DNA of 64,000 nucleotides from Escherichia coli. Its GTDB lineage: Bacteria > Pseudomonadota > Gammaproteobacteria > Enterobacterales > Enterobacteriaceae. The stretch's first letter is position 1. Each line of letters begins with the position of its first letter. Below, in pieces: positions 43,937 to 64,000 of this stretch. The DNA lies in assembly GCF_044324785.1 (NCBI RefSeq), contig NZ_CP172127.1; one strand, given 5' to 3'. The notes under the pieces are model-generated. The model was not told the origin of the DNA, ran no database searches, and was given only the letters and a program-made list of their open reading frames with translations. The position numbers and the translations under genes were made by a program.

Positions 43937-44002
43937 GGGCGTGATTACCTGATTTAGGTTTCAAAATGATAACTTCGCAAGCAAGTAACATTCACAACGA
44001 AA

Positions 44003-44362
44003 TTATCCACGTTTCAGTTTAAGCGCCAATGATAGAGCATTCTGTGATAGTGGATCATGGGGAAAGATCACATCGGGCTGTAAATCACCCGCATACATAC
44101 CGGTAATTGCGGGAATTTTTTGCGGTCGGGCGAAGACGGTCAGTCCTTTCATAAACAAGGTGTCGACGATGCGTTGCTGATCGTCCAGGGCGATGGCGAC
44201 CACGACCCGCGGTTTAAAGCGCCCGCTGGAACGGCCCACGCCAACCCGCCCTTGCTGGCATAGTGTGTCGAAGGCACGGTTAAAACGAGAAATTTGCCAA
44301 CCGCCTAAGGCCAGTTGCGCACACCAGGCGATAACGGCGACGGTGATGAGTGCGGATACCAT
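44003..44362 (-). CDS. gutM: Glucitol operon activator GutM
   Basis: 119 aa, N-terminal hydrophobic segment; conserved position. Confidence 0.88.
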   Translation of the reverse strand: MVSALITVAVIAWCAQLALGGWQISRFNRAFDTLCQQGRVGVGRSSGRFKPRVVVAIALDDQQRIVDTLFMKGLTVFARPQKIPAITGMYAGDLQPDVIFPHDPLSQNALSLALKLKRG

Positions 44363-44394
44363 AACTTCTCCGTAATGTAGTGGCGGAAGTCTTG

Positions 44395-44424
44395 TAGGCC
44401 TGATAAGCGTAGCGCATCAGGCAT
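44395..44424. repeat. REP element, with adjacent hairpin (44437-44461) between srlD and gutM
   Basis: gtaggcctgataagcgtagcgcatcaggca REP-like palindrome, followed by gcggagatc-N7-gatctccgc. Confidence 0.65.
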
Positions 44425-44467
44425 TCTATTAGTCGCGCGGAGATCCTTAAAAGATCTCCGCTGTTGA

Positions 44468-45622
<1,155 letters not shown>

Positions 45623-45632
45623 GTTTCAGCCT

Positions 45633-47170
<1,538 letters not shown>

Positions 47171-47407
47171 TTATTGTTTTATTACCAAACGGCAACCTAA
47201 TCTAATCAGATTGAAAGATTTAAAAGTGTTATTTTGATCGCAAAATGAAAGATAAATATTTTAACTTGAAAGTTTCAATAAAAGGATAGCGAGGAGAATG
47301 AGTTGAGTTATGTAAAGTCCGTATCGGGCAGTGACTACCGCTTCCTTGTGCGGGGCGTGATGCTTTACCATACTTGCCCCTGGTTGAATCTGTTAAATGG
47401 ACCCCTC

Positions 47408-48493
47408 ATGTTCAAGCGTCGTTATGTAACATTGCTTCCCCTTTTTGTGTTGCTTGCCGCCTGTAGCAGCAAGCCAAAACCTACTGAGACTGAAACGACC
47501 ACCGGAACGCCGTCTGGCGGCTTCCTGCTTGAGCCGCAGCACAATGTGATGCAGATGGGCGGCGATTTCGCTAATAACCCGAATGCCCAGCAGTTCATCG
47601 ACAAAATGGTGAACAAACACGGTTTCGATCGTCAGCAGTTGCAGGAAATTCTCTCCCAGGCGAAACGTCTGGATTCGGTATTGCGGCTGATGGATAACCA
47701 GGCACCAACTACTTCGGTGAAACCGCCATCAGGTCCGAACGGCGCATGGCTGCGTTATCGCAAAAAATTTATTACGCCGGACAACGTGCAGAATGGTGTC
47801 GTTTTCTGGAATCAGTATGAAGATGCGCTGAATCGCGCGTGGCAGGTGTATGGCGTACCGCCGGAAATTATCGTCGGGATTATCGGCGTTGAAACGCGCT
47901 GGGGGCGTGTGATGGGGAAAACTCGCATCCTCGATGCGCTGGCAACGCTGTCATTTAACTACCCACGCCGCGCGGAGTATTTCTCTGGCGAGCTGGAAAC
48001 CTTCCTGCTGATGGCGCGCGACGAGCAGGACGATCCGCTCAATCTGAAAGGTTCCTTTGCCGGGGCGATGGGCTACGGACAGTTTATGCCGTCGTCTTAC
48101 AAACAATACGCGGTAGATTTCAGCGGCGACGGGCATATCAACCTGTGGGATCCGGTTGATGCCATTGGTAGTGTGGCGAACTATTTCAAAGCGCACGGCT
48201 GGGTGAAAGGTGATCAGGTTGCGGTGATGGCAAACGGTCAGGCTCCAGGCTTGCCAAATGGCTTCAAAACCAGGTACAGCATTTCGCAGCTTGCCGCGGC
48301 AGGTTTAACGCCACAGCAGCCGCTGGGCAACCATCAACAAGCTAGCCTGCTGCGTCTGGATGTTGGAACAGGTTACCAGTACTGGTACGGTCTGCCGAAC
48401 TTCTACACCATTACCCGTTATAACCACAGCACCCATTACGCAATGGCGGTCTGGCAGTTAGGACAAGCTGTGGCGCTGGCACGCGTGCAGTAA
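47408..48493 (+). CDS. mltB: Membrane-bound lytic murein transglycosylase B (lipoprotein)
   Basis: ORF 47303..48493; start set at MFKRRYVTLLPLFVLLAACSS (lipobox), 361 aa. Confidence 0.9.
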   Translation: MFKRRYVTLLPLFVLLAACSSKPKPTETETTTGTPSGGFLLEPQHNVMQMGGDFANNPNAQQFIDKMVNKHGFDRQQLQEILSQAKRLDSVLRLMDNQAPTTSVKPPSGPNGAWLRYRKKFITPDNVQNGVVFWNQYEDALNRAWQVYGVPPEIIVGIIGVETRWGRVMGKTRILDALATLSFNYPRRAEYFSGELETFLLMARDEQDDPLNLKGSFAGAMGYGQFMPSSYKQYAVDFSGDGHINLWDPVDAIGSVANYFKAHGWVKGDQVAVMANGQAPGLPNGFKTRYSISQLAAAGLTPQQPLGNHQQASLLRLDVGTGYQYWYGLPNFYTITRYNHSTHYAMAVWQLGQAVALARVQ

Positions 48494-48637
48494 CTATTTG
48501 CAAGAGGGGGGCGTGAGCTTCCCTCTGCCAAATCGGCTTTTTTCTGAATCCTCCTCGTAAAATTGCAACGCCAACACCATCTTCCTGACGAAAGTGCTAT
48601 CTTGTCCGGCATAAATTTTTGACTGACAGAGGTTGTG

Positions 48638-49135
48638 ATGACTGACAGTGAACTGATGCAGTTAAGCGAACAGGTTGGGCAGGCGCTGAAAGCCCGTGGC
48701 GCAACCGTAACAACTGCTGAGTCTTGTACCGGTGGTTGGGTAGCGAAAGTGATTACCGATATTGCCGGTAGCTCCGCCTGGTTTGAACGCGGATTTGTCA
48801 CCTACAGTAACGAAGCCAAAGCGCAAATGATCGGCGTACGTGAAGAGACGCTGGCGCAGCATGGCGCGGTGAGCGAGCCTGTCGTGGTGGAAATGGCGAT
48901 AGGCGCACTGAAAGCGGCTCGTGCTGATTATGCCGTGTCTATTAGTGGTATCGCCGGGCCGGATGGCGGCAGTGAAGAGAAGCCTGTTGGCACCGTCTGG
49001 TTTGCTTTTGCCACTGCCCGTGGCGAAGGCATTACCCGGCGGGAATGCTTCAGCGGTGACCGTAATGCGGTGCGTCGTCAGGCTACTGCGTATGCATTGC
49101 AGACCTTGTGGCAACAATTTCTACAAAACACTTGA
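48638..49135 (+). CDS. pncC: NMN amidohydrolase PncC (CinA-like)
   Basis: Start at ATG 48638 (MTDSELMQ...), 165 aa. Confidence 0.9.
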   Translation: MTDSELMQLSEQVGQALKARGATVTTAESCTGGWVAKVITDIAGSSAWFERGFVTYSNEAKAQMIGVREETLAQHGAVSEPVVVEMAIGALKAARADYAVSISGIAGPDGGSEEKPVGTVWFAFATARGEGITRRECFSGDRNAVRRQATAYALQTLWQQFLQNT

Positions 49136-50276
<1,141 letters not shown>

Positions 50277-50344
50277 TCGTCTTGTTTGATACACAAGGGT
50301 CGCATCTGCGGCCCTTTTGCTTTTTTAAGTTGTAAGGATATGCC

Positions 50345-50845
50345 ATGACAGAATCAACGTCCCGTCGCCCGGCATATGCTCGCCTGTTAGATCGTGCGGT
50401 ACGCATTCTGGCGGTGCGCGATCACAGTGAGCAAGAATTGCGACGTAAACTCGCGGCACCGATCATGGGCAAAAATGGCCCGGAAGAGATTGATGCCACG
50501 GCAGAAGATTACGAGCGCGTTATCGCCTGGTGCCATGAACATGGCTATCTCGATGACAGCCGATTTGTTGCGCGCTTTATCGCCAGCCGTAGCCGCAAAG
50601 GTTATGGACCTGCGCGTATTCGTCAGGAACTGAATCAGAAAGGTATTTCCCGCGAAGCGACAGAAAAAGCGATGCGTGAATGTGACATCGACTGGTGCGC
50701 ACTGGCGCGCGATCAGGCGACGCGAAAATATGGCGAACCTTTGCCAACTGTCTTTTCAGAAAAAGTTAAGATCCAGCGTTTTCTGCTCTATCGTGGCTAT
50801 CTGATGGAAGATATCCAGGATATTTGGCGAAATTTTGCCGACTGA
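50345..50845 (+). CDS. recX: RecA regulator RecX
   Basis: 166 aa, recognised sequence, downstream of recA. Confidence 0.92.
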
Positions 50846-50973
50846 ACGCATACGGTATTTTACTTCCCAGTCAAGAAAACTTATCTTATTCCCACTTTTT
50901 CAGTTACCAGCCCGGCGGTTAAAACACGCTGTAGCTGGTGGCGATATTTCGTTAGCTTGATTTCAGGATAATT

Positions 50974-53604
50974 ATGAGCAAGAGCACCGCTGAGATCCGT
51001 CAGGCGTTTCTCGACTTTTTCCATAGTAAGGGACATCAGGTAGTTGCCAGCAGCTCCCTGGTACCCCATAACGACCCAACTTTGTTGTTTACCAACGCCG
51101 GGATGAACCAGTTCAAGGATGTGTTCCTTGGGCTCGACAAGCGTAATTATTCCCGCGCTACCACTTCCCAACGCTGCGTGCGTGCGGGTGGTAAACACAA
51201 CGACCTGGAAAACGTCGGTTACACCGCGCGTCACCATACCTTCTTCGAAATGCTGGGCAACTTCAGCTTCGGCGACTATTTCAAACACGATGCCATTCAG
51301 TTTGCATGGGAACTGCTGACCAGTGAAAAATGGTTTGCCCTGCCGAAAGAGCGTCTGTGGGTTACCGTCTATGAAAGCGACGACGAAGCCTACGAAATCT
51401 GGGAAAAAGAAGTAGGGATCCCGCGCGAACGTATTATTCGCATCGGCGATAACAAAGGTGCGCCATACGCATCTGACAACTTCTGGCAGATGGGTGACAC
51501 TGGTCCGTGCGGCCCGTGCACCGAAATCTTCTACGATCACGGCGACCACATTTGGGGTGGCCCTCCGGGAAGTCCGGAAGAAGACGGCGATCGCTACATT
51601 GAGATCTGGAACATCGTCTTCATGCAGTTCAACCGCCAGGCAGATGGCACGATGGAACCGCTGCCGAAGCCGTCTGTAGATACCGGTATGGGTCTGGAGC
51701 GTATTGCTGCGGTGCTGCAACACGTTAACTCTAACTATGACATCGACCTGTTCCGCACGCTGATCCAGGCGGTAGCGAAAGTCACTGGCGCGACCGATCT
51801 GAGCAATAAATCGCTGCGCGTAATCGCTGACCACATTCGTTCTTGTGCGTTCCTGATCGCGGATGGCGTAATGCCGTCCAATGAAAACCGTGGTTATGTA
51901 CTGCGTCGTATCATTCGTCGCGCAGTGCGTCACGGCAATATGCTGGGCGCGAAAGAAACCTTCTTCTACAAACTGGTTGGTCCGCTGATCGACGTAATGG
52001 GCTCTGCGGGTGAAGACCTGAAACGCCAGCAGGCGCAGGTTGAGCAGGTGCTGAAGACTGAAGAAGAGCAGTTTGCCCGTACTCTGGAGCGCGGTCTGGC
52101 GCTGCTGGATGAAGAGCTGGCAAAACTTTCTGGTGATACGCTGGATGGCGAAACTGCTTTCCGTCTGTACGACACCTATGGCTTCCCGGTTGACCTGACG
52201 GCTGATGTTTGTCGTGAGCGCAACATCAAAGTTGACGAAGCTGGTTTCGAAGCAGCAATGGAAGAGCAGCGTCGTCGCGCGCGCGAAGCCAGCGGCTTTG
52301 GTGCCGATTACAACGCAATGATCCGTGTTGACAGCGCATCTGAATTTAAAGGCTATGACCATCTGGAACTGAACGGCAAAGTGACCGCGCTGTTTGTTGA
52401 TGGTAAAGCGGTTGATGCCATCAATGCAGGCCAGGAAGCTGTGGTCGTGCTGGATCAAACGCCATTCTATGCGGAATCCGGCGGTCAGGTTGGTGATAAA
52501 GGCGAACTGAAAGGCGCTAACTTCTCCTTTGCGGTGGAAGATACGCAGAAATACGGCCAGGCGATTGGTCACATCGGTAAACTTGCTGCGGGTTCTCTGA
52601 AAGTGGGCGACGCGGTGCAGGCTGATGTTGATGAGGCTCGTCGCGCCCGTATTCGTCTGAATCACTCCGCAACGCACCTGATGCACGCTGCGCTGCGCCA
52701 GGTTCTGGGTACTCATGTATCGCAGAAAGGTTCACTGGTTAACGACAAAATGCTGCGCTTCGACTTCTCACACAACGAAGCGATGAAACCAGAAGAGATT
52801 CGTGCGGTCGAAGACCTGGTGAACGCACAGATTCGCCGTAACTTGCCGATCGAAACCAACATCATGGATCTCGAAGCGGCGAAAGCGAAAGGTGCGATGG
52901 CGCTGTTCGGCGAGAAGTATGATGAACGTGTACGTGTGCTGAGCATGGGCGATTTCTCCACCGAGCTGTGTGGCGGTACTCACGCCAGCCGCACTGGTGA
53001 TATTGGTCTGTTCCGCATCATCTCTGAATCGGGTACTGCTGCAGGCGTTCGTCGTATCGAAGCGGTAACTGGAGAAGGCGCTATCGCCACCGTTCATGCA
53101 GACAGCGATCGCTTAAGCGAAGTCGCGCATCTGCTGAAAGGCGATAGCAATAATCTGGCTGATAAAGTGCGTTCAGTACTGGAACGTACGCGTCAGCTGG
53201 AAAAAGAGTTACAACAGCTTAAAGAACAAGCTGCCGCACAGGAGAGCGCAAATCTTTCCAGTAAGGCAATTGATGTTAATGGTGTTAAGCTGTTGGTTAG
53301 CGAGCTTAGCGGTGTTGAGCCGAAAATGTTGCGTACCATGGTTGACGATTTAAAAAATCAGCTGGGGTCGACAATTATCGTGCTGGCAACGGTAGCCGAA
53401 GGTAAGGTTTCTCTGATTGCAGGCGTATCTAAGGACGTCACAGATCGTGTGAAAGCAGGGGAACTGATTGGTATGGTCGCTCAGCAGGTGGGCGGCAAGG
53501 GTGGTGGACGTCCTGACATGGCGCAAGCCGGTGGTACGGATGCTGCGGCCTTACCTGCAGCGTTAGCCAGTGTGAAAGGCTGGGTCAGCGCGAAATTGCA
53601 ATAA
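50974..53604 (+). CDS. alaS: Alanine--tRNA ligase
   Basis: 876 aa; full-length AlaRS. Confidence 0.97.
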
Positions 53605-53838
53605 TATAAGCGTCAGGCAATGCCGTGGACTCGCTTCACGGCATTCGCATTAACGCTATCGACAACGATAAAGTCAGGTTGAAGTTGTGTATATCGGCTA
53701 AACTTAGGTTTAACAGAATGTAATGCCATGACTGCTTACATGTAATGTGTTTGTCATTGCTTACTTTTTGGCGTTATATGATGGATAATGCCGGGATACA
53801 GAGAGACCCGACTCTTTTAATCTTTCAAGGAGCAAAGA

Positions 53839-54024
53839 ATGCTGATTCTGACTCGTCGAGTTGGTGAGACCCTCATGATTGGGGATGAGGTCACCGTGAC
53901 AGTTTTAGGGGTAAAGGGCAACCAGGTACGTATTGGCGTAAATGCCCCGAAGGAAGTTTCTGTTCACCGTGAAGAGATCTACCAGCGTATCCAGGCTGAA
54001 AAATCCCAGCAGTCCAGTTACTAA
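53839..54024 (+). CDS. csrA: Carbon storage regulator CsrA
   Basis: 61 aa [48 protein letters not shown]. Confidence 0.97.
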
Positions 54025-54249
54025 TCTTTCCGCGTCTCATCTTTATCGGTGAGACGCACCCTCAAAATTTCTCCTTCACTCCATTGTCTTTTCGCTTTAC
54101 TCCCGTTCATTCAACTTAAGTCTCCATTTTTTTGCATTACTGCTATCTGTCAGACCTCCGTTTTTCTGTTGATAAAACACTCTTTTTGACGTTTTTACAG
54201 ACTAATTGAGCGTGAAGTGTGCAAACGATAAAAGTGTGGGAAAAATTGT

Positions 54250-54277
54250 TTGACTTATAAGTCTCAGAAAGTAATAT
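54250..54277 (+). promoter_or_regulatory. Sigma-70 promoter of serV-arg tRNA operon
   Basis: -35 TTGACT, 16-bp spacer, -10 TAATAT, then GC-rich discriminator gtgcgcc; AT-rich upstream region. Confidence 0.5.
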
Positions 54278-54339
54278 GTGCGCCACGCAGCGACGATGAG
54301 CGATAAACAAGTTCTTCGAAGCACTCGTAAGAGGCGTGT

Positions 54340-54432
54340 GGTGAGGTGGCCGAGAGGCTGAAGGCGCTCCCCTGCTAAGGGAGTATGCGGTCAAAAGCTG
54401 CATCCGGGGTTCGAATCCCCGCCTCACCGCCA
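54340..54432 (+). tRNA. serV: tRNA-Ser (anticodon GCT)
   Basis: 93-nt cloverleaf with long variable arm, anticodon loop ctGCTaa, CCA end. Confidence 0.93.
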
Positions 54433-54435
54433 TTT

Positions 54436-54512
54436 GCATCCGTAGCTCAGCTGGATAGAGTACTCGGCTACGAACCGAGCGGTCGGAGGTTCGAATCCTC
54501 CCGGATGCACCA
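54436..54512 (+). tRNA. tRNA-Arg (anticodon ACG)
   Basis: 77 nt gcatccgtagctcagctggatagagtactcggctACGaaccgagcggtcggaggttcgaatcctcccggatgcacca; 3 bp after serV. Confidence 0.93.
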
Positions 54513-54575
54513 TCTCTTACTTGATATGGCTTTAGTGGCGGTATCAATATCAGCAGTAAAATAAATTTTCCCGAT

Positions 54576-54652
54576 GCATCCGTAGCTCAGCTGGATAGAG
54601 TACTCGGCTACGAACCGAGCGGTCGGAGGTTCGAATCCTCCCGGATGCACCA
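54576..54652 (+). tRNA. tRNA-Arg (anticodon ACG), second identical copy
   Basis: Identical 77-nt sequence, 63-bp spacer after first copy. Confidence 0.93.
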
Positions 54653-54767
54653 TATTCTCCGTAACCTTCAGCAATGAAGGTATCGAAGAGATAGCGGTAT
54701 TAACCGCAGGCACCAGGGAGGATAACGTTGCGCCAGCAACGGCCCGAAGGGCGAACGTCAGTGAGTC

Positions 54768-54785
54768 ATCCTCCCGGATGCACCA
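54768..54785 (+). other. 18-nt remnant identical to the 3' end of tRNA-Arg (atcctcccggatgcacca)
   Basis: Read directly 115 bp after the second tRNA-Arg; no tRNA body upstream. Confidence 0.6.
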
Positions 54786-54932
54786 TCTTCTCCAAAAAAC
54801 TTCCTTCAAAAATATCTCATTTCTAAATAACTACTTTATCCATTTCCTGAATTTTCTTCTCCTTCGCCATCAGCGACAAAATCAAGCAATTACGCTAAAG
54901 TAGCGTCATATTTTTCGACTTGCGAGAAGACC

Positions 54933-55499
54933 ATGTACGAGCGTTATGCAGGTTTAATTTTTGATATGGATGGCACAATCCTGGATACGGAGCCTACGCA
55001 CCGTAAAGCGTGGCGCGAAGTATTAGGGCACTACGGTCTTCAGTACGATGTTCAGGCGATGATTGCGCTTAATGGCTCGCCCACCTGGCGTATTGCTCAG
55101 GCGATTATTGAGCTGAATCAGGCCGATCTCGACCCGCATGCGTTAGCGCGTGAAAAAACAGAAGCAGTAAGAAGTATGCTGCTGGATAGTGTCGAGCCGC
55201 TTCCTCTTGTTGAAGTGGTGAAAAGTTGGCATGGTCGTCGCCCAATGGCTGTAGGAACGGGGAGTGAAAGCGCCATCGCTGAGGCATTGCTGGCGCACCT
55301 GGGATTACGCCGTTATTTTGACGCCGTCGTCGCTGCCGATCACGTCAAACACCATAAACCCGCGCCAGACACATTTTTGTTGTGCGCGCAGCGTATGGGC
55401 GTGCAACCGACGCAGTGTGTGGTCTTTGAAGATGCCGATTTCGGTATTCAGGCGGCCCGTGCAGCAGGCATGGACGCTGTGGATGTTCGCTTGCTGTGA
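54933..55499 (+). CDS. yqaB: HAD-family sugar phosphatase YqaB
   Basis: 188 aa; HAD motif I FDMDGT. Confidence 0.9.
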   Translation: MYERYAGLIFDMDGTILDTEPTHRKAWREVLGHYGLQYDVQAMIALNGSPTWRIAQAIIELNQADLDPHALAREKTEAVRSMLLDSVEPLPLVEVVKSWHGRRPMAVGTGSESAIAEALLAHLGLRRYFDAVVAADHVKHHKPAPDTFLLCAQRMGVQPTQCVVFEDADFGIQAARAAGMDAVDVRLL

Positions 55500-55924
55500 G
55501 TGAAGCGTTATCGCTTTTCTCGTTGTTTGCCAGTAGTTTTCTCAGCGCTACACTATTACCCGGCAACTCCGAAGTCGTGCTGGTGGCAATGTTGCTTTCC
55601 GGGATCAGTCATCCCTGGGTTTTAGTTTTAACAGCAACAATGGGTAATAGCCTTGGAGGGTTAACTAACGTTATCCTTGGGCGTTTCTTTCCATTGCGTA
55701 AAACATCGCGCTGGCAAGAGAAAGCTACTGGCTGGCTGAAACGCTATGGTGCAGTCACGCTATTATTAAGCTGGATGCCCGTAGTTGGCGATTTACTGTG
55801 TCTGTTAGCGGGATGGATGCGCATCTCCTGGGGGCCGGTAATCTTTTTTTTGTGCCTTGGTAAAGCGTTACGCTATGTTGCAGTTGCAGCAGCGACCGTT
55901 CAGGGCATGATGTGGTGGCACTAA
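55496..55924 (+). CDS. yqaA: DedA/SNARE-associated family inner membrane protein YqaA
   Basis: 142 aa membrane protein; overlaps yqaB stop. Confidence 0.88.
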   Translation: MSEALSLFSLFASSFLSATLLPGNSEVVLVAMLLSGISHPWVLVLTATMGNSLGGLTNVILGRFFPLRKTSRWQEKATGWLKRYGAVTLLLSWMPVVGDLLCLLAGWMRISWGPVIFFLCLGKALRYVAVAAATVQGMMWWH

Positions 55925-55969
55925 TTGTAGGCCTGCACATATGGTCACCATTACAGTTATGCTAATTAA

Positions 55970-57553
<1,584 letters not shown>

Positions 57554-57561
57554 CAGAAAAG

Positions 57562-57634
57562 AAAAAGGCCACTCGTGAGTGGCCAAAATTTCATCTCTGA
57601 ATTCAGGGATGATGATAACAAATGCGCGTCTTTC
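57562..57634 (-). ncRNA. micA: MicA (SraD) small regulatory RNA
   Basis: Reverse complement gives GAAAGACGCGCATTTGTTATCATCATCCCTGAATTCAGAGATGAAATTTTGGCCACTCACGAGTGGCCTTTTT; between gshA and luxS on the opposite strand. Confidence 0.85.
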
Positions 57635-57702
57635 ATATACTCAGACTCGCCTGGGAAGAAAGAGTTCAGAAAATTTTTAAAAAAATTACCGGAGGTGGCT
57701 AA

Positions 57703-58218
57703 ATGCCGTTGTTAGATAGCTTCACAGTCGATCATACCCGGATGGAAGCGCCTGCAGTTCGGGTGGCGAAAACAATGAACACCCCGCATGGCGACGCAAT
57801 CACCGTGTTCGATCTGCGCTTCTGCGTGCCGAACAAAGAAGTGATGCCAGAAAGAGGGATCCATACCCTGGAGCACCTGTTTGCTGGTTTTATGCGTAAC
57901 CATCTTAACGGTAATGGTGTAGAGATTATCGATATCTCGCCAATGGGCTGCCGCACCGGTTTTTATATGAGTCTGATTGGTACGCCAGATGAGCAGCGTG
58001 TTGCTGATGCCTGGAAAGCGGCAATGGAAGACGTGCTGAAAGTGCAGGATCAGAATCAGATCCCGGAACTGAACGTCTACCAGTGTGGCACTTACCAGAT
58101 GCACTCGTTGCAGGAAGCGCAGGATATTGCGCGTAGCATTCTGGAACGTGACGTGCGCATCAACAGCAACGAAGAACTGGCGCTGCCGAAAGAGAAGTTG
58201 CAGGAACTGCACATCTAG
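57703..58218 (+). CDS. luxS: S-ribosylhomocysteine lyase (AI-2 synthase)
   Basis: 171 aa; HTLEHL metal-binding motif. Confidence 0.96.
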
Positions 58219-58250
58219 TCAGTAAACTATCTTCACAATTAATTGAAAAA

Positions 58251-58272
58251 AGCCAGTTCAAATGAACTGGCT
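58251..58272. terminator. Hairpin between convergent luxS and emrB
   Basis: agccagttca-aa-tgaactggct perfect inverted repeat flanked by A/T runs. Confidence 0.55.
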
Positions 58273-58281
58273 TAGTTGTAC

Positions 58282-59820
58282 TTAGTGCGCACCACCTCCG
58301 CCGCCACCTGCGCCAAATGGCGGTTTAGCAAACCACACCAGCCCCAGCAGGACGAGGAATATCCCGGCTGACATCCAGAAGATCTCATTGGCGGAAATAA
58401 TCAGCCCCTGATTGGTGATCTGCTGGGCAATCCAGCCTGATGCCTGCTGTTGCGTCATTCCCAGTCCTTCCAGTTGACTGTACATCGCTTGGGCATTCGG
58501 GTTGAACGGGTTTACCGACTCGGTTAACTGTGCGTGGTGCATCGACTCGCGGTTGGTCCACATGGTGGTGGTAATGGATGTGCCGATAGACCCCGCCAGC
58601 GTTCGCGTAAAGTTAGAGAGGCTCGATGCCGCCGCCAGTCGTTCCGGTGGCAAACCAGACAGCGTAATGGTGGTCAGCGGCATAAAGAAGCAGGCCACCG
58701 CAAAACCCTGGATAAACTGCGGCCAGGCCGACGCGCCAAAATCCATACCCGGTTCAAAGGTATAGGCACGCCAGTAGAAGCAGACGGCATACATAATAAA
58801 GCTGAAGGTTACCAGCCGCCGCATATCCAGTTTATGCGCGAAGCGGCCGATAATCGGCGACAGGATCACCGGAATAATTCCTACCGGCGCAGAGGCCAGA
58901 CCTGCCCACGTTGCCGTGTAACCGTAGACCTCCTGCAACAACTGCGGCAGCAGAACAATAGCGCCGAAGTAGAGCATATACGCGAGGCTGATACACAAAC
59001 AGCCGATGGTGAAGTTGCGCGACTTAAACAACGACAGATCGACTATCGGGTTATCGTCGGTCAGCTCCCAGACAATCAGGAAGCAGATAGCCACCACTGC
59101 CACCACGGTAAGGATGATAATTTCCTGTGATGAGAACCAGTCCAACTCTTTACCGCGGTCGAGCATAATCTGCAGGCTACCGATACCAATAACCAGCAGT
59201 GCCAGCCCCACGGCATCAATCCGCCGCCGTTCGGTGCGGGTTTCGCGTCCGCGCAGGGTTTGCAGTGTCATCAACACCACCGCCACGCCAATCGGCACGT
59301 TGATGAAGAATATCCAGCCCCAGTGGTAATTATCGCTGATATAACCGCCGAGGATCGGGCCGCAAATTGGCGCGACAATCACCGTCATCGACCACAACGC
59401 CAGCGCGATCGAGCGTTTGGCTGGCGGGTAGTTATTCAGCAATAGACTTTGCGAAAGCGGGATCAACGGTCCGGCGACAATCCCCTGAATCACGCGGAAG
59501 AAGATCAGCATATTCAGGCTGCTGGAGACACCACACGCCCACGACGCAATAGCAAAGGCGATGGTTGACCAGAGGAACAGTTTCACTTCCCCGACGCGCT
59601 TTGCCAGCCAGCCGGTAAGCGGGATCGAGATGGCATTCGCTACCCCGAAGGAAGTGATTACCCACGTTCCCTGGCTGAGCGATGAGCCCAGATTCCCGGC
59701 GATAGTGGGGATCGCCACGTTAGCAATGGTGGAGTCCAGCACCTGCATGAATGTCGCCAGTGACAGCGCAATCGTCATAATGACCAGTTGCGCGCCTTCC
59801 AGCGGTTTTTGCTGTTGCAT
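58282..59820 (-). CDS. emrB: Multidrug efflux MFS transporter EmrB
   Basis: ORF 58282..59829; start set at MQQQKPLEGAQL (512 aa); 14-TM MFS. Confidence 0.94.
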   Translation of the reverse strand: MQQQKPLEGAQLVIMTIALSLATFMQVLDSTIANVAIPTIAGNLGSSLSQGTWVITSFGVANAISIPLTGWLAKRVGEVKLFLWSTIAFAIASWACGVSSSLNMLIFFRVIQGIVAGPLIPLSQSLLLNNYPPAKRSIALALWSMTVIVAPICGPILGGYISDNYHWGWIFFINVPIGVAVVLMTLQTLRGRETRTERRRIDAVGLALLVIGIGSLQIMLDRGKELDWFSSQEIIILTVVAVVAICFLIVWELTDDNPIVDLSLFKSRNFTIGCLCISLAYMLYFGAIVLLPQLLQEVYGYTATWAGLASAPVGIIPVILSPIIGRFAHKLDMRRLVTFSFIMYAVCFYWRAYTFEPGMDFGASAWPQFIQGFAVACFFMPLTTITLSGLPPERLAAASSLSNFTRTLAGSIGTSITTTMWTNRESMHHAQLTESVNPFNPNAQAMYSQLEGLGMTQQQASGWIAQQITNQGLIISANEIFWMSAGIFLVLLGLVWFAKPPFGAGGGGGGAH

Positions 59821-59836
59821 CACACGCACCTCTGGA

Positions 59837-61009
59837 TTAGCCAGCGTTAGCTTTTACGATATCGTCGATCAGTTTATTGACAGGTGCCAGGCTGATTTCA
59901 CGCGCGGTGCTTACCGCTACCGGTGTGGAACGTACTTTATTTGCCAGTACCTGACCGTCACGGTTAGTGGTATTGACGCTCACCAGCGTGGATAAACCGA
60001 TACGCAGCGGGTATTGCTCCAGCTGTTTTTGGTCCAGTTCGATACGAACAGGCAGACGCTGAACGACTTTGATCCAGTTACCAGTCGCATTTTGCGCCGG
60101 AAGCAGTGAGAACGCGCTACCTGTGCCCATATCCAGACCAACCACTTTTCCGGTGTATTTCACATCATCGCCGTAAATATCGGTGGTGATGGTGACCGGC
60201 TGACCGATACGCATATTGGCAATCTGCGTCTCTTTAAAGTTGGCATCCACCCACATATTGGTGGCTGGAACGACCGCCATCAGCGGCGTCGTTGGGCTAA
60301 TTTGCGCCCCAGGCTGTACCGCGCGGCGGGAGACATAACCGGTCATCGGACTGACAATACGGGTACGCTCCAGCGCCAGCCAGGTGTTACGTACTTCGGT
60401 GGCAGCCTGTTGCACGGCAGGCTGATCTTCCAGTTTAGTCCCCAGAATCATCGCCTGATTGGCATTGTATTGTTGAATAGCGACGTCCAGTTGTGCCTGG
60501 GCACTGGTAACGGCGTCGCGGGCGTGTTGCAGCTCTTCGCGACCAATCAGGTTGGCATTGCCCAGCGGCACACGGCGGTTGTAGTCGCTTTGTGCTTTCG
60601 CGAGGGCGATTTTTTGCACCTCAATATTCGCCTGCAACTGTTTGCTGTTAATCATCAGCTGGTGGGTTTGGCGAACGCTGGAAGCCAGTGCAGTTTTGGC
60701 TTTTTCAAACGCCTGGCGAGCATCTGTCGGGTCGAGAGTGACCAGAACATCGCCTTCTTTTACAAAATCGGTGTTATCGGCCCAGACTTTCGTCACGCTG
60801 CCAGACACCTGAGACATAATTTGAATCTGATTCCCTGCCACGTATGCGTCATCGGTTTCTTCGAAATGACGCAGTACTAAAAACCAATAAATCCCTATCG
60901 CTACGGCAATAATTATAAAGAGCAAGGTGAGAAGGAGGAGCAGACGCTTACGTTTGCCGCTCTTCTTTACCGGTTGCTGCGGGGTTTGAGTCTCCGCATT
61001 TGCGCTCAT
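59837..61009 (-). CDS. emrA: Multidrug efflux membrane fusion protein EmrA
   Basis: ORF 59837..61021; start set at MSANAETQTP (390 aa); HlyD-family periplasmic adaptor. Confidence 0.94.
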   Translation of the reverse strand: MSANAETQTPQQPVKKSGKRKRLLLLLTLLFIIIAVAIGIYWFLVLRHFEETDDAYVAGNQIQIMSQVSGSVTKVWADNTDFVKEGDVLVTLDPTDARQAFEKAKTALASSVRQTHQLMINSKQLQANIEVQKIALAKAQSDYNRRVPLGNANLIGREELQHARDAVTSAQAQLDVAIQQYNANQAMILGTKLEDQPAVQQAATEVRNTWLALERTRIVSPMTGYVSRRAVQPGAQISPTTPLMAVVPATNMWVDANFKETQIANMRIGQPVTITTDIYGDDVKYTGKVVGLDMGTGSAFSLLPAQNATGNWIKVVQRLPVRIELDQKQLEQYPLRIGLSTLVSVNTTNRDGQVLANKVRSTPVAVSTAREISLAPVNKLIDDIVKANAG

Positions 61010-61135
61010 ATTGTTCTCCACGATCTTCTTAACTCATCGGCTGAGCCGACCTGCTTGCCAAAAAGGCCAGCATGTTGCGATGCTGGCCAGTCATTTTTTC
61101 TTTTATAAATCTGGATTTTTGAGCGAGATGACGCG

Positions 61136-61666
61136 TTAGCTCATCGCTTCGAGAACCACACCGTCTTGTTCCATCTGGTCGAGACGGGAGAGCAATTTGC
61201 GGGTGATTTGCTCGAGCTGATCTTTTTCTGTTGTGCTGAGCGCGGACCAGAGTTGATGCAGGCAGTTATGCTGCGGTGGTAAAACCTCGCGCAAAAACTC
61301 GTGACCTTTTTCCGTTAATTGCAGATGCAGGCAGCGGCGATCGTTATCGCTTTCACGACGTTCAATCCAACCGCGTTTTTCCAGTTCATCGGCAATACGC
61401 GTCGCGTTGGTACGGGATGATCCAAGAGCACAACTCAATTCAGAAGGCTGAATACTGTGGTTTTCCTGAGACTCCAGCGTAATCAACGCCATAAACAACG
61501 TCTCGTTAATCCCCTGAGCCTTCAGCATTTTATTGCGGTTCTCCAGCAGCTTGCTTTGCATGTGCATGCAAAGACGGGTCAGAAGGATCTCCTGATAAGG
61601 AAAATCTTCGTGGCGGCTGGCGCGAAATTTTAGCATTTGTTCAATGGGCGTAAACGAACTATCCAT
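61136..61666 (-). CDS. emrR: MarR-family repressor of emrAB (EmrR/MprA)
   Basis: 176 aa, recognised sequence; upstream of emrAB. Confidence 0.94.
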
Positions 61667-61756
61667 TTGGGTATGACCTCATTAATTTCAGCCGATATAG
61701 TAACGACAGTGACAAATAAAGTAAATGTATTGTTTTAGAAAAATGATTCTTGTGGG

Positions 61757-62092
61757 TTATATAATCGCCATCACTTTCCAGGCGAGCCCGTAGGCCAGCG
61801 CACTAAGCAGTGTTGGGATGATAATGCTGCGTGTTTTATAGAAACTGGCACCCAGTACCGCGAAGCCGACCAGCGTGGGCACGAAACGGCGTGTATCGTG
61901 CATCACTTCTGGTGCGGTAGAGACAACCAGCAGAGCGCATATCGAGGCGATGCCAATGGTGTCGAGCAATATGCCTATCGCGCCACGTTTGGTTGGGCGG
62001 GCATTACCCACACGCAGGCGCAGCGGCAAATAGCGGAAGCAATAATTCGCCGCGCCAACCAGTAACCCAAGCAGCAGAACCTCATAGCTCAT
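61757..62092 (-). CDS. ygaH: L-valine exporter small subunit YgaH (AzlD-like)
   Basis: 111 aa membrane protein; overlaps ygaZ 3' end. Confidence 0.88.
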
Positions 62093-62819
62093 CGGGCGCT
62101 CCTTGCCAGAATGCCTGGATTAACGCAGTGAGGCAGCCACAGACAATGCCTGCCAGAATGGCGACGGGAATAGAAAATAGCGTTACGCCTGCAAGGGCAC
62201 CAACTAACGCTGCGGTAACGCAAAGAGATTGTTTGCGCTGGAAAGAGGCGAGCAGGAAACTCATAAAGAGTGCCGGAAGCATAAAACCTAATGCTGCTTC
62301 AACGGCGGGATATCCTTGCAGCAAGCCGCTGCCGGAGAATGCCCCTATTACCGTACCAAATACCCACGATGACCATGAACTGAAGGCAATGCCGATCATC
62401 CAGTTCTCGCTCCAGCGGCGATTATTGCGTACCAGTTTTGCGGTTGCGGCGGCAAAAACCTCATCCGTCAGGCCAAATGCCCACAGGGCGGTTTTCGATT
62501 TTTGCAGACGCTGAATAATACGGCTACGCAGTGACGGGCCATACAAAACATGGCGAACATCCATTGCCATGACGGTCAGTGCAGCAACCCACAAACTACT
62601 CCCGGCTGCCAGCATCGCGGTAATGACGAACTGGCTCGCGCCTGCATAAATGATGCAGGAGAAAAAAACGCTTTCGAGAGGAGAGAATCCCAGACGGGTC
62701 GCATTCAGACCGAACGCAAAGGCCACCGGAATATAACTAATAACAATCGGTAAACTGTCTTTGCATCCTTCCATGAAGGTCGCCGAACCAGGAGCAGGCT
62801 GTGGAGTAGGGCTTTCCAT
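62082..62819 (-). CDS. ygaZ: L-valine exporter subunit YgaZ (AzlC-like)
   Basis: 245 aa polytopic membrane protein. Confidence 0.88.
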
Positions 62820-62942
62820 AGAGTGTACGCTTAACGATTGTTAATATTATAAATAGACTGAATGAATATCTTAACCTTATCAGACTGATGGGCTTCTTAA
62901 CACCCTTATAAGTGTAAAGCCACGAAAACGGTTGCTGATTGC

Positions 62943-64000
62943 TTAATTTGCAGCTTCCTGACGATGAAAACCTCGCCACCAGACCAGTAAGTTAACCAGG
63001 GCAATCGTCGCGCCAGCCAGACAAACGCCAGCCCAACCGCCATGTTGCCAGGCTGAGGCTGAAATTAGCGAACCGGCGGCACCGCCAATAAAGTAGCTGG
63101 TCATGTAACCTGCGGTCAGGCGATTACGCGCATCAGGGTGTATTCGATAAATTACCGTCTGGTTAGTGATATGCACGCCCTGCACGGTGAGATCCAGCAC
63201 CAGGATGCCGATAATCAAGGCCAGTACGGAAGTGTGGCCAAACCAGATCGCCAGCCATGAAAGTAATAGCAGCAGCAGACCGAAAGTAGTGGTGTGGTGC
63301 GATTTACCCTTATCGGCAAAACCGCCCGCCGGACGAGCACCCAACGCTCCGGCAGCTCCCGCAAGTCCAAACAGACCAATTACACCATCGCTGTAGTTAA
63401 AAGGTGGAGCGGCAAGCAAAAAGGCCATTGAGGTCCAGAGAATGCTGAAGTTGGCAAAGGTCAGGCAGCCCAGCAACGCGCGGGTGCGCAGAATTTTATC
63501 GCTGATAAACATGCTGAAAACGGAACCAAGCAACTGTGGGTAGTTGAGGTGGGTTTCTGATTTCATTTGTGGCAGACCACGCCATAATGCCAGCGCCATC
63601 AGTGCCATTAACACCGAGGCAACCCAAAAGACGGTGCGCCAGCCGCCGAGGTTTGCCAGCAACCCGGCAACGGTTCGTGCCAGCAAGATCCCCAACAGCA
63701 GCCCGCTCATAATGGTGCCGACCACTTTGCCGCGTTTGTCCGGTGAAGCCAGCGTCGCTGCCAGCGGAACCAGAATTTGTGCCACGACCGAGAATAAACC
63801 GGTTAATGCCGTACCGAGGATCATCATCGCCAGCGACTGACTGCTGGCGGTAATCAACATACCGCCTGCCGCCAGTAAGGTCATCGAGACAATCAGGCGG
63901 CGGCGTTCAAACATATCACCGAGGGGAACAAGAAACAGCAGACCTGCGGCATAGCCCAACTGCGCGGCGGTAACAATAAAGCCCGCCGAACTGGCGGAAA
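62943..64000 (-). CDS. ygaY: MFS transporter (YgaY-like), 5' end beyond window
   Basis: Minus-strand frame open from 62943 to the window edge with no stop; hydrophobic MFS-like translation. Confidence 0.75.
   Translation of the reverse strand, partial: SASSAGFIVTAAQLGYAAGLLFLVPLGDMFERRRLIVSMTLLAAGGMLITASSQSLAMMILGTALTGLFSVVAQILVPLAATLASPDKRGKVVGTIMSGLLLGILLARTVAGLLANLGGWRTVFWVASVLMALMALALWRGLPQMKSETHLNYPQLLGSVFSMFISDKILRTRALLGCLTFANFSILWTSMAFLLAAPPFNYSDGVIGLFGLAGAAGALGARPAGGFADKGKSHHTTTFGLLLLLLSWLAIWFGHTSVLALIIGILVLDLTVQGVHITNQTVIYRIHPDARNRLTAGYMTSYFIGGAAGSLISASAWQHGGWAGVCLAGATIALVNLLVWWRGFHRQEAAN

Follow-up and report, generated by a model that had tools for sequence, protein, structure and literature searches.

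The gene ygaY is annotated as a pseudogene in Escherichia coli K-12 MG1655 (b2681; UniProt P76628; 1178 bp, NC_000913.3 2808316-2809493), and in the 64,000-nucleotide stretch of E. coli DNA analysed here (the window) a minus-strand frame resembling it is open up to the window edge. The locus raises the question of whether this frame belongs to an intact transporter gene and, if it does, whether the intact or the broken state is the ordinary one in E. coli. We conclude, with a probability of about 0.9, that the frame is the 3' part of an intact ygaY, a gene for a 12-helix transporter of the major facilitator superfamily (MFS) located between proX and ygaZH.

The ygaY reading frame and its locus

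The features of the locus are listed below. L024 denotes a public locus identical to the window, from which part of the region was read.

62943..64000, minus strand: ygaY coding sequence, 3' part (1058 of 1185 nt; codons 44-394, the stop codon and 2 nt of codon 43)
62943..62945, minus strand: TAA stop codon of ygaY, read from the sequence
63860..63873, minus strand: imperfect 7-bp tandem repeat, GGCGGCA followed by GGCGGTA (codons 86-90, A-A-G-G-M), of which K-12 keeps one unit
62820..62942, minus strand: ygaY-ygaZ intergenic spacer, 123 bp (coordinates converted from L024)
about 62874..62846, minus strand: sigma-70-like promoter match TTAAGA-17-TATAAT (10/12) directed towards ygaZ, a consensus match only (L024 3136-3164)
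62082..62819, minus strand: ygaZ, AzlC-family L-valine exporter subunit; as the gene next downstream of ygaY it fixes the synteny
61757..62092, minus strand: ygaH, AzlD-family L-valine exporter subunit, part of the ygaY context
61136-61666, minus strand: mprA/emrR, on the same strand downstream of ygaY
59837-61009, minus strand: emrA, on the same strand downstream of ygaY

The initial annotation had described an open minus-strand frame of more than 1 kb reaching the window edge, and its coordinates and strand were correct: from 63998 to 62943 we counted 351 sense codons followed by TAA, with the frame running off the edge at 64000. The window holds the 3' 89% of ygaY, encoding residues 44-394 of the 394-aa YgaY, while 127 nt at the 5' end of the gene (codons 1-43), with the start codon, and the promoter lie beyond the edge. 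The frame is neither a chance ORF nor the shadow of an opposite-strand gene, as the five alternative frames across 62943..64000, those of the opposite strand included, contain 10-17 stops each, none of 20,000 mononucleotide shuffles of the ygaY coding bases left a stop-free frame (mean 11.9 stops), the window fragment matched Pfam MFS_1 (PF07690) in a profile search with an E value of 4.8e-36 (124.8 bits, the gathering score being 33.4 bits), and YgaY homologues number in the thousands. Full-length YgaY scored 142.2 bits against the same profile, in keeping with the initial description of the product as a typical MFS transporter.

The gene order ygaZ-ygaH-mprA-emrA matches that of the annotated E. 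coli strain 144 and, reversed, that of K-12 MG1655, and the window locus corresponds to the K-12 proX-ygaY-ygaZ-ygaH-mprA-emrAB region in reverse. The frame lies where a ygaY orthologue is expected, between proX and ygaZ-ygaH-mprA-emrAB and on the strand shared with ygaZ; the proX side was read from L024 and the ygaZ/ygaH/mprA/emrA side from the window. The gene, at first called ygaY-like, is therefore ygaY by position, with ygaZ, ygaH, mprA and emrA next to it on the same strand.

The missing 5' end was read from L024, which belongs to a draft E. coli genome (GCA_013355125.1, contig SNEV01000001.1) and was reached by an exact-protein look-up with the window's rarer EmrA variant; the common YgaY and YgaZ proteins, used as exact look-up queries, returned only loci non-identical to the window. 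Comparison of L024 with the window gave 0 mismatches over 9,164 overlapping bases. Its ygaY starts at an ATG situated 127 nt past the window edge and continues as a full 394-codon frame to the same TAA, and the extension beyond 64000 proposed in the initial annotation thus revealed a start codon and neither a frameshift nor a stop upstream of the edge. The encoded protein differs from WP_000165699.1 only by P4T, a residue outside the window, and at least 1,000 contigs bearing the name E. coli carry this exact variant (UniRef A0A0Q2Z040). In the window's own genome ygaY is in all likelihood complete, on evidence that is strong but indirect, since it comes from an identical public contig and not from the window itself.

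A simple scan of the identical locus L024 found no terminator-like hairpin in the ygaY-ygaZ spacer, so that read-through from ygaY into ygaZH would be possible, and an Rfam scan of 60000-64000 at gathering thresholds returned no match. Upstream of ygaY, a simple scan of L024 found no consensus promoter, and no clear Shine-Dalgarno sequence was visible before the ATG. REP-like palindromic elements (e.g. tgcctgatgcgacgctgacgcgtcttatcacgcctac) follow the proX stop at L024 1692-1882, outside the window, and the DNA between these elements and the ygaY ATG is an AT-rich stretch.

Fold, family placement and proposed transport

An AlphaFold2 model of the full YgaY of L024, built on 108 homologues (mean pLDDT 94.8, pTM 0.92), contains twelve TM helices arranged 6+6, running from residues 10-40 to about 361-393, with a short helix at 196-209 in the central loop. 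This is the topology that the initial annotation had expected of a complete protein. The hydropathy profile is consistent with twelve helices, of which the window covers TM2-TM12.

The consensus of MFS motif A is G-x-x-x-D-R/K-x-G-R-R/K. YgaY carries it in the TM2-TM3 loop as 68-PLGDMFERRRL-78, degenerate at the inner G, and among the homologues P68 is conserved in 108/108, G70 in 98/108, D71 in 106/108 and R75 in 91/108. Two further residues stand out by their conservation: R151 in TM5, present in 107 of the 108 homologues, and D312 in TM10, present in 95, which together with Q316, N322 and Q323 makes up a conserved acidic/polar cluster. All of these conserved residues (motif A, R151 and the TM10 cluster) are encoded and present within the window.

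A Foldseek search with the model placed SotB, MdfA and NorA at ranks 1-12, with TM-scores of 0.78-0.90, so the fold of YgaY is closest to structures of the drug:H+ antiporter-1 (DHA1) family. SotB (PDB 6KKK/6KKL; TM-score 0.84-0.90) has the same 12-helix 6+6 fold and MdfA (PDB 4ZP0, 6EUQ) scored 0.83; SotB and MdfA aligned with YgaY over about 380-390 columns at a sequence identity of only 15-17%. No NCBIfam model scored above its cut-off for YgaY, and a named orthologue did not emerge from this search. The full-length weak matches in NCBIfam were to efflux families only (SotB-type PRK03545, Cmx/CmrA, Bcr/CflA and EmrD), and the curated DHA1 HMMs (Bcr/CflA, EmrD, PRK03545, Cmx) reached at best 38-64 bits against cut-offs of 200-479. 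A PDB sequence search with YgaY gave weak matches only, partly to the N-domain. DHA1 antiporters are characterized by motif C, G-x8-G-x3-G-P-x2-G-G, in TM5. This motif is not evident in TM5 of YgaY (137-GTIMSGLLLGILLARTVAGLL-157), where there is no G-P dipeptide, and because of its absence we did not file YgaY as a DHA1 member.

Best hits to TCDB have been tabulated in a publication (PMC5417439), where YgaY (P76628) appears under TC 2.A.1.36.3, in the YnfM (acriflavin-sensitivity) family and thus in one TC family with YnfM. YnfM of E. coli (b1596), the founding member of TC 2.A.1.36, is similar to YgaY over its full length (26% identity over 376 aa, E 2e-20, BLASTP), and this similarity and the published listing both point to the YnfM family. 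R151 of TM5 is common to the two proteins, whereas D312 of YgaY is replaced by serine in YnfM; their contexts also differ, YnfM adjoining the LysR regulator ynfL and ygaY lying between proX and ygaZH. Among four homologues with 49-57% identity (P0124, P0125, P0126 and P0129), no partner gene was common to the neighbourhoods, which thus offer no hint of the substrate. We place the gene in the MFS, as the ygaY orthologue and, by sequence, in the YnfM family, and only in the sense of working like one may it be compared with a DHA1 exporter.

By analogy with its relatives, YgaY is most likely a proton-coupled exporter. We favour export because the nearest solved folds are those of DHA1 exporters (SotB, MdfA and NorA), because the published table places the protein in the YnfM family, and because E. 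coli YnfM itself was reported to be a CCCP-sensitive (H+-dependent) glutarate exporter (PMC12622518). YgaY would then act as a secondary transporter, driven by the proton gradient through an MFS rocker-switch cycle of alternating access and moving its substrate outwards. R151 in TM5 and the TM10 residues D312, Q316, N322 and Q323 are candidate substrate or proton sites, and a small organic anion would be the best guess for the substrate.

The most serious alternative, although an unlikely one, is that the intact protein is an importer working as an H+ symporter. The fold does not reveal the direction of MFS transport, YgaY lacks DHA1 motif C, the best partial NCBIfam match is an aromatic acid/H+ symporter model (TIGR00895, 78 bits) and the best PDB sequence match is the glucose symporter GlcP. 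However, both symporter matches are restricted to the N-domain, the generic half of the protein, whereas the full-length neighbours in sequence and structure (SotB, MdfA, NorA, Cmx, Bcr and EmrD) are exporters, and one member of the family named in the published table, YnfM, is reported to export glutarate.

The reading of YgaY as a proton-coupled exporter can be narrowed further, in a form that we regard as speculative and, as it stands, rather improbable. Intact YgaY would be a dedicated exporter whose specific substrate is either a small organic anion or a metabolite related to amino acids, and the location of its gene beside the valine exporter ygaZH and the osmoprotectant operon proVWX might point to a common role in stress relief. 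It is part of the same speculation that, with K-12 ygaY dead throughout its laboratory history, a conserved and strongly selected transporter would have been missed by K-12-based functional genomics.

The K-12 lesion and the distribution of intact alleles

The intact ygaY of strain 144 (NZ_CP023364.1) has 1185 bp and 394 codons. In a three-way alignment of the window, K-12 and this intact allele, the sole length difference was the lack in K-12 of 7 bp at gene nt 261-267, corresponding to window 63861-63867 or, equivalently, 63860-63866, where the window retains these bases. The K-12 frame reads ...L-L-A-A-C-stop, terminating at codon 89, and contains 14 in-frame stops in total, its product being 88 residues long (TM1-3). 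The initial annotation had described ygaY as a disrupted pseudogene in K-12, and the alignment agreed with this description and located the defect in the 7-bp deletion; the K-12 gene, being frameshifted, is not an intact and identical copy of that in the window.

When the 7 bp were restored in silico, K-12 ygaY was without internal stops or any other defect and encoded the common E. coli protein, indicating that the pseudogene carries a single, evidently recent lesion. The restored K-12 product is identical to that of the window over residues 44-394, the locus, orientation and neighbours being the same. Over the full gene, the two differ by 34 synonymous changes and one amino acid (2.0 nonsynonymous changes by the Nei-Gojobori method), and over 60000-64000 the window and K-12 differ by 66 mismatches and 1 gap in 4,001 nt (98.2%). 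The window's 351 residues are also identical to those of WP_000165699.1, annotated as 'MFS transporter' in strain 144, and all 8 of the 8 nucleotide differences are synonymous.

The bases lost from K-12 belong to the imperfect tandem repeat at 63860..63873. In most other ygaY alleles this repeat is perfect, with two GGCGGCA units, and the exact 40-mer containing the perfect repeat (GGCGGCAGGCGGCA) was found in 1,506 complete E. coli genomes. Both units are present in the window and the frame is open, so the window does not carry the K-12-type pseudogene. K-12 keeps exactly one of the two units, which is the signature of a slipped-strand deletion; from this pattern, which fits replication slippage, we infer that the K-12 pseudogene would have arisen once in the K-12 lineage, by loss of one unit of the GGCGGCA x2 repeat.

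The frequency of the lesion was determined with a query of 80 bases across the K-12 deletion junction against 5,414 complete E. coli genomes. The exact junction was present in about 354 of them; matches of 95-99% did not occur, and the other 5,060 genomes matched at 80-95%, i.e. with the 7-bp gap. The junction carriers that were inspected, 60/60 of the top-listed and 60/60 of an even sample drawn from the 353 carriers that a stricter search gave, were all K-12 laboratory derivatives or genomes of K-12-like size; they include MG1655, BW25113, W3110-type, C600, J53, DH-series strains and JM109, as well as TG1, MC4100, S17-1, RP437 and O16:H48 isolates.

Draft genomes and metagenomes supplied 24 loci outside K-12, and each of them has a full 394-codon frame. 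Among 16 distinct ygaY alleles, those compared with that of the window differed from it by 12-40 synonymous and 1-5 nonsynonymous changes, giving dN/dS values of 0.017-0.04 against the window's allele; across 117 allele pairs the median was 0.019. Intact 394-aa orthologues of YgaY are present in Shigella, E. fergusonii (97-98% identity), E. marmotae (98%), E. albertii (96%) and Citrobacter (93%), and in Citrobacter the gene is syntenic, in the order nrdEF-proVWX-ygaY-ygaZH-mprA-emrAB. Based on the allele survey, the dN/dS values and the intact orthologues of the relatives, intact ygaY is, as judged from these sequences, ancestral and nearly universal among E. coli and its relatives and maintained under strong purifying selection, and K-12 is the exception. 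The suggestion in the initial annotation that this strain may carry a functional allele therefore holds for the frame, which is intact, but not as a peculiarity of the strain, as the gene is intact in ~93% of complete genomes. It is an ordinary gene, already known and annotated in thousands of genomes.

These data also bear on whether ygaY, with its frame open in the window, could nevertheless be dead, owing to a 5' or promoter lesion beyond the edge or to transcriptional silencing, for example by a cover of H-NS such as has been proposed for the K-12 proU-ygaY region. The 5' end does lie outside the window, the upstream region of L024 has neither a strong Shine-Dalgarno sequence nor a consensus promoter, and H-NS bridging to ygaY was reported in K-12 (bioRxiv 10.1101/2023.07.10.548347). 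However, L024, identical to the window throughout their overlap, has the ATG and the full frame, and the dN/dS of ~0.02 together with the 93%-identical Citrobacter protein indicates selection on the protein, which should therefore be expressed under some conditions. We consider a dead gene very unlikely.

It is even harder to believe that the 7-bp repeat is a phase-variation (contingency) switch by which ygaY is turned on and off in nature, although K-12 has lost exactly one of the two units and the perfect repeat is common (the exact 40-mer in 1,506 genomes). The repeat has two units only, and of the 5,414 genomes only those of the K-12 laboratory lineage showed the one-unit state and none the three-unit state. 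Since the short state is confined to K-12 and a single historical event explains the data, we rejected such a switch.

The allele of the window appears to be a mosaic (63663-63873, gene nt 128-338, versus the rest of ygaY): between about nt 190 and nt 338 it matches K-12 exactly except for the 7 bp, and from about nt 400 it follows the strain-144 haplotype. The mosaic probably reflects intragenic recombination, and the allele is the closest 'pre-deletion' version of K-12 ygaY seen here. For an 81-base stretch around the window's repeat, a search of 5,403 complete E. coli genomes gave 97.5% as the best match and none that was exact. There was likewise no exact match to the window among 5,426 complete E. 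coli genomes, the best reaching 99.3% for the gene and 98.8% for 44000-64000, and the lineage of the window appears to be unrepresented among complete genomes. Over 44000-64000, 32 genomes had at least 80% matched in one joined place, with the gene order as in K-12, and the split matches over this region were probably caused by tandem tRNA-Arg genes.

Some database proteins matched only the N-terminal part of YgaY. P0121, P0122, P0123, P0146, P0234, P0251, P0259 and P0262, proteins of 186-323 aa, are 90-99% identical to it over spans from query residues 1-135 up to 1-235. These cluster representatives are the products either of ygaY alleles frameshifted independently in other public genomes or of faulty assembly, and they hint at a few independent losses. 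P0001, 596 aa long and encoded on an ENA contig of 5.4 kb, matched with full coverage at 73% identity and with a score of 1095 bits, above that of the self-hit; in this contig ygaY seems to be either partly duplicated internally or misassembled.

Implications for the study of ygaY

In the literature, K-12 ygaY is treated as a cryptic gene or pseudogene (bioRxiv 10.1101/2023.07.10.548347; bioRxiv 10.1101/072470; PMC12134211), and in K-12 it has served as a neutral integration site (PMC12134211) and its deletion as a control (bioRxiv 10.1101/072470). At this locus K-12 is an atypical E. coli strain, its lesion consisting of the loss of one 7-bp repeat unit. Because the gene is intact and strongly conserved in about 93% of complete genomes, insertions into ygaY of wild strains would not be neutral by default. 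YgaY is an orphan transporter that can be studied only outside K-12 or after restoration of the 7 bp.
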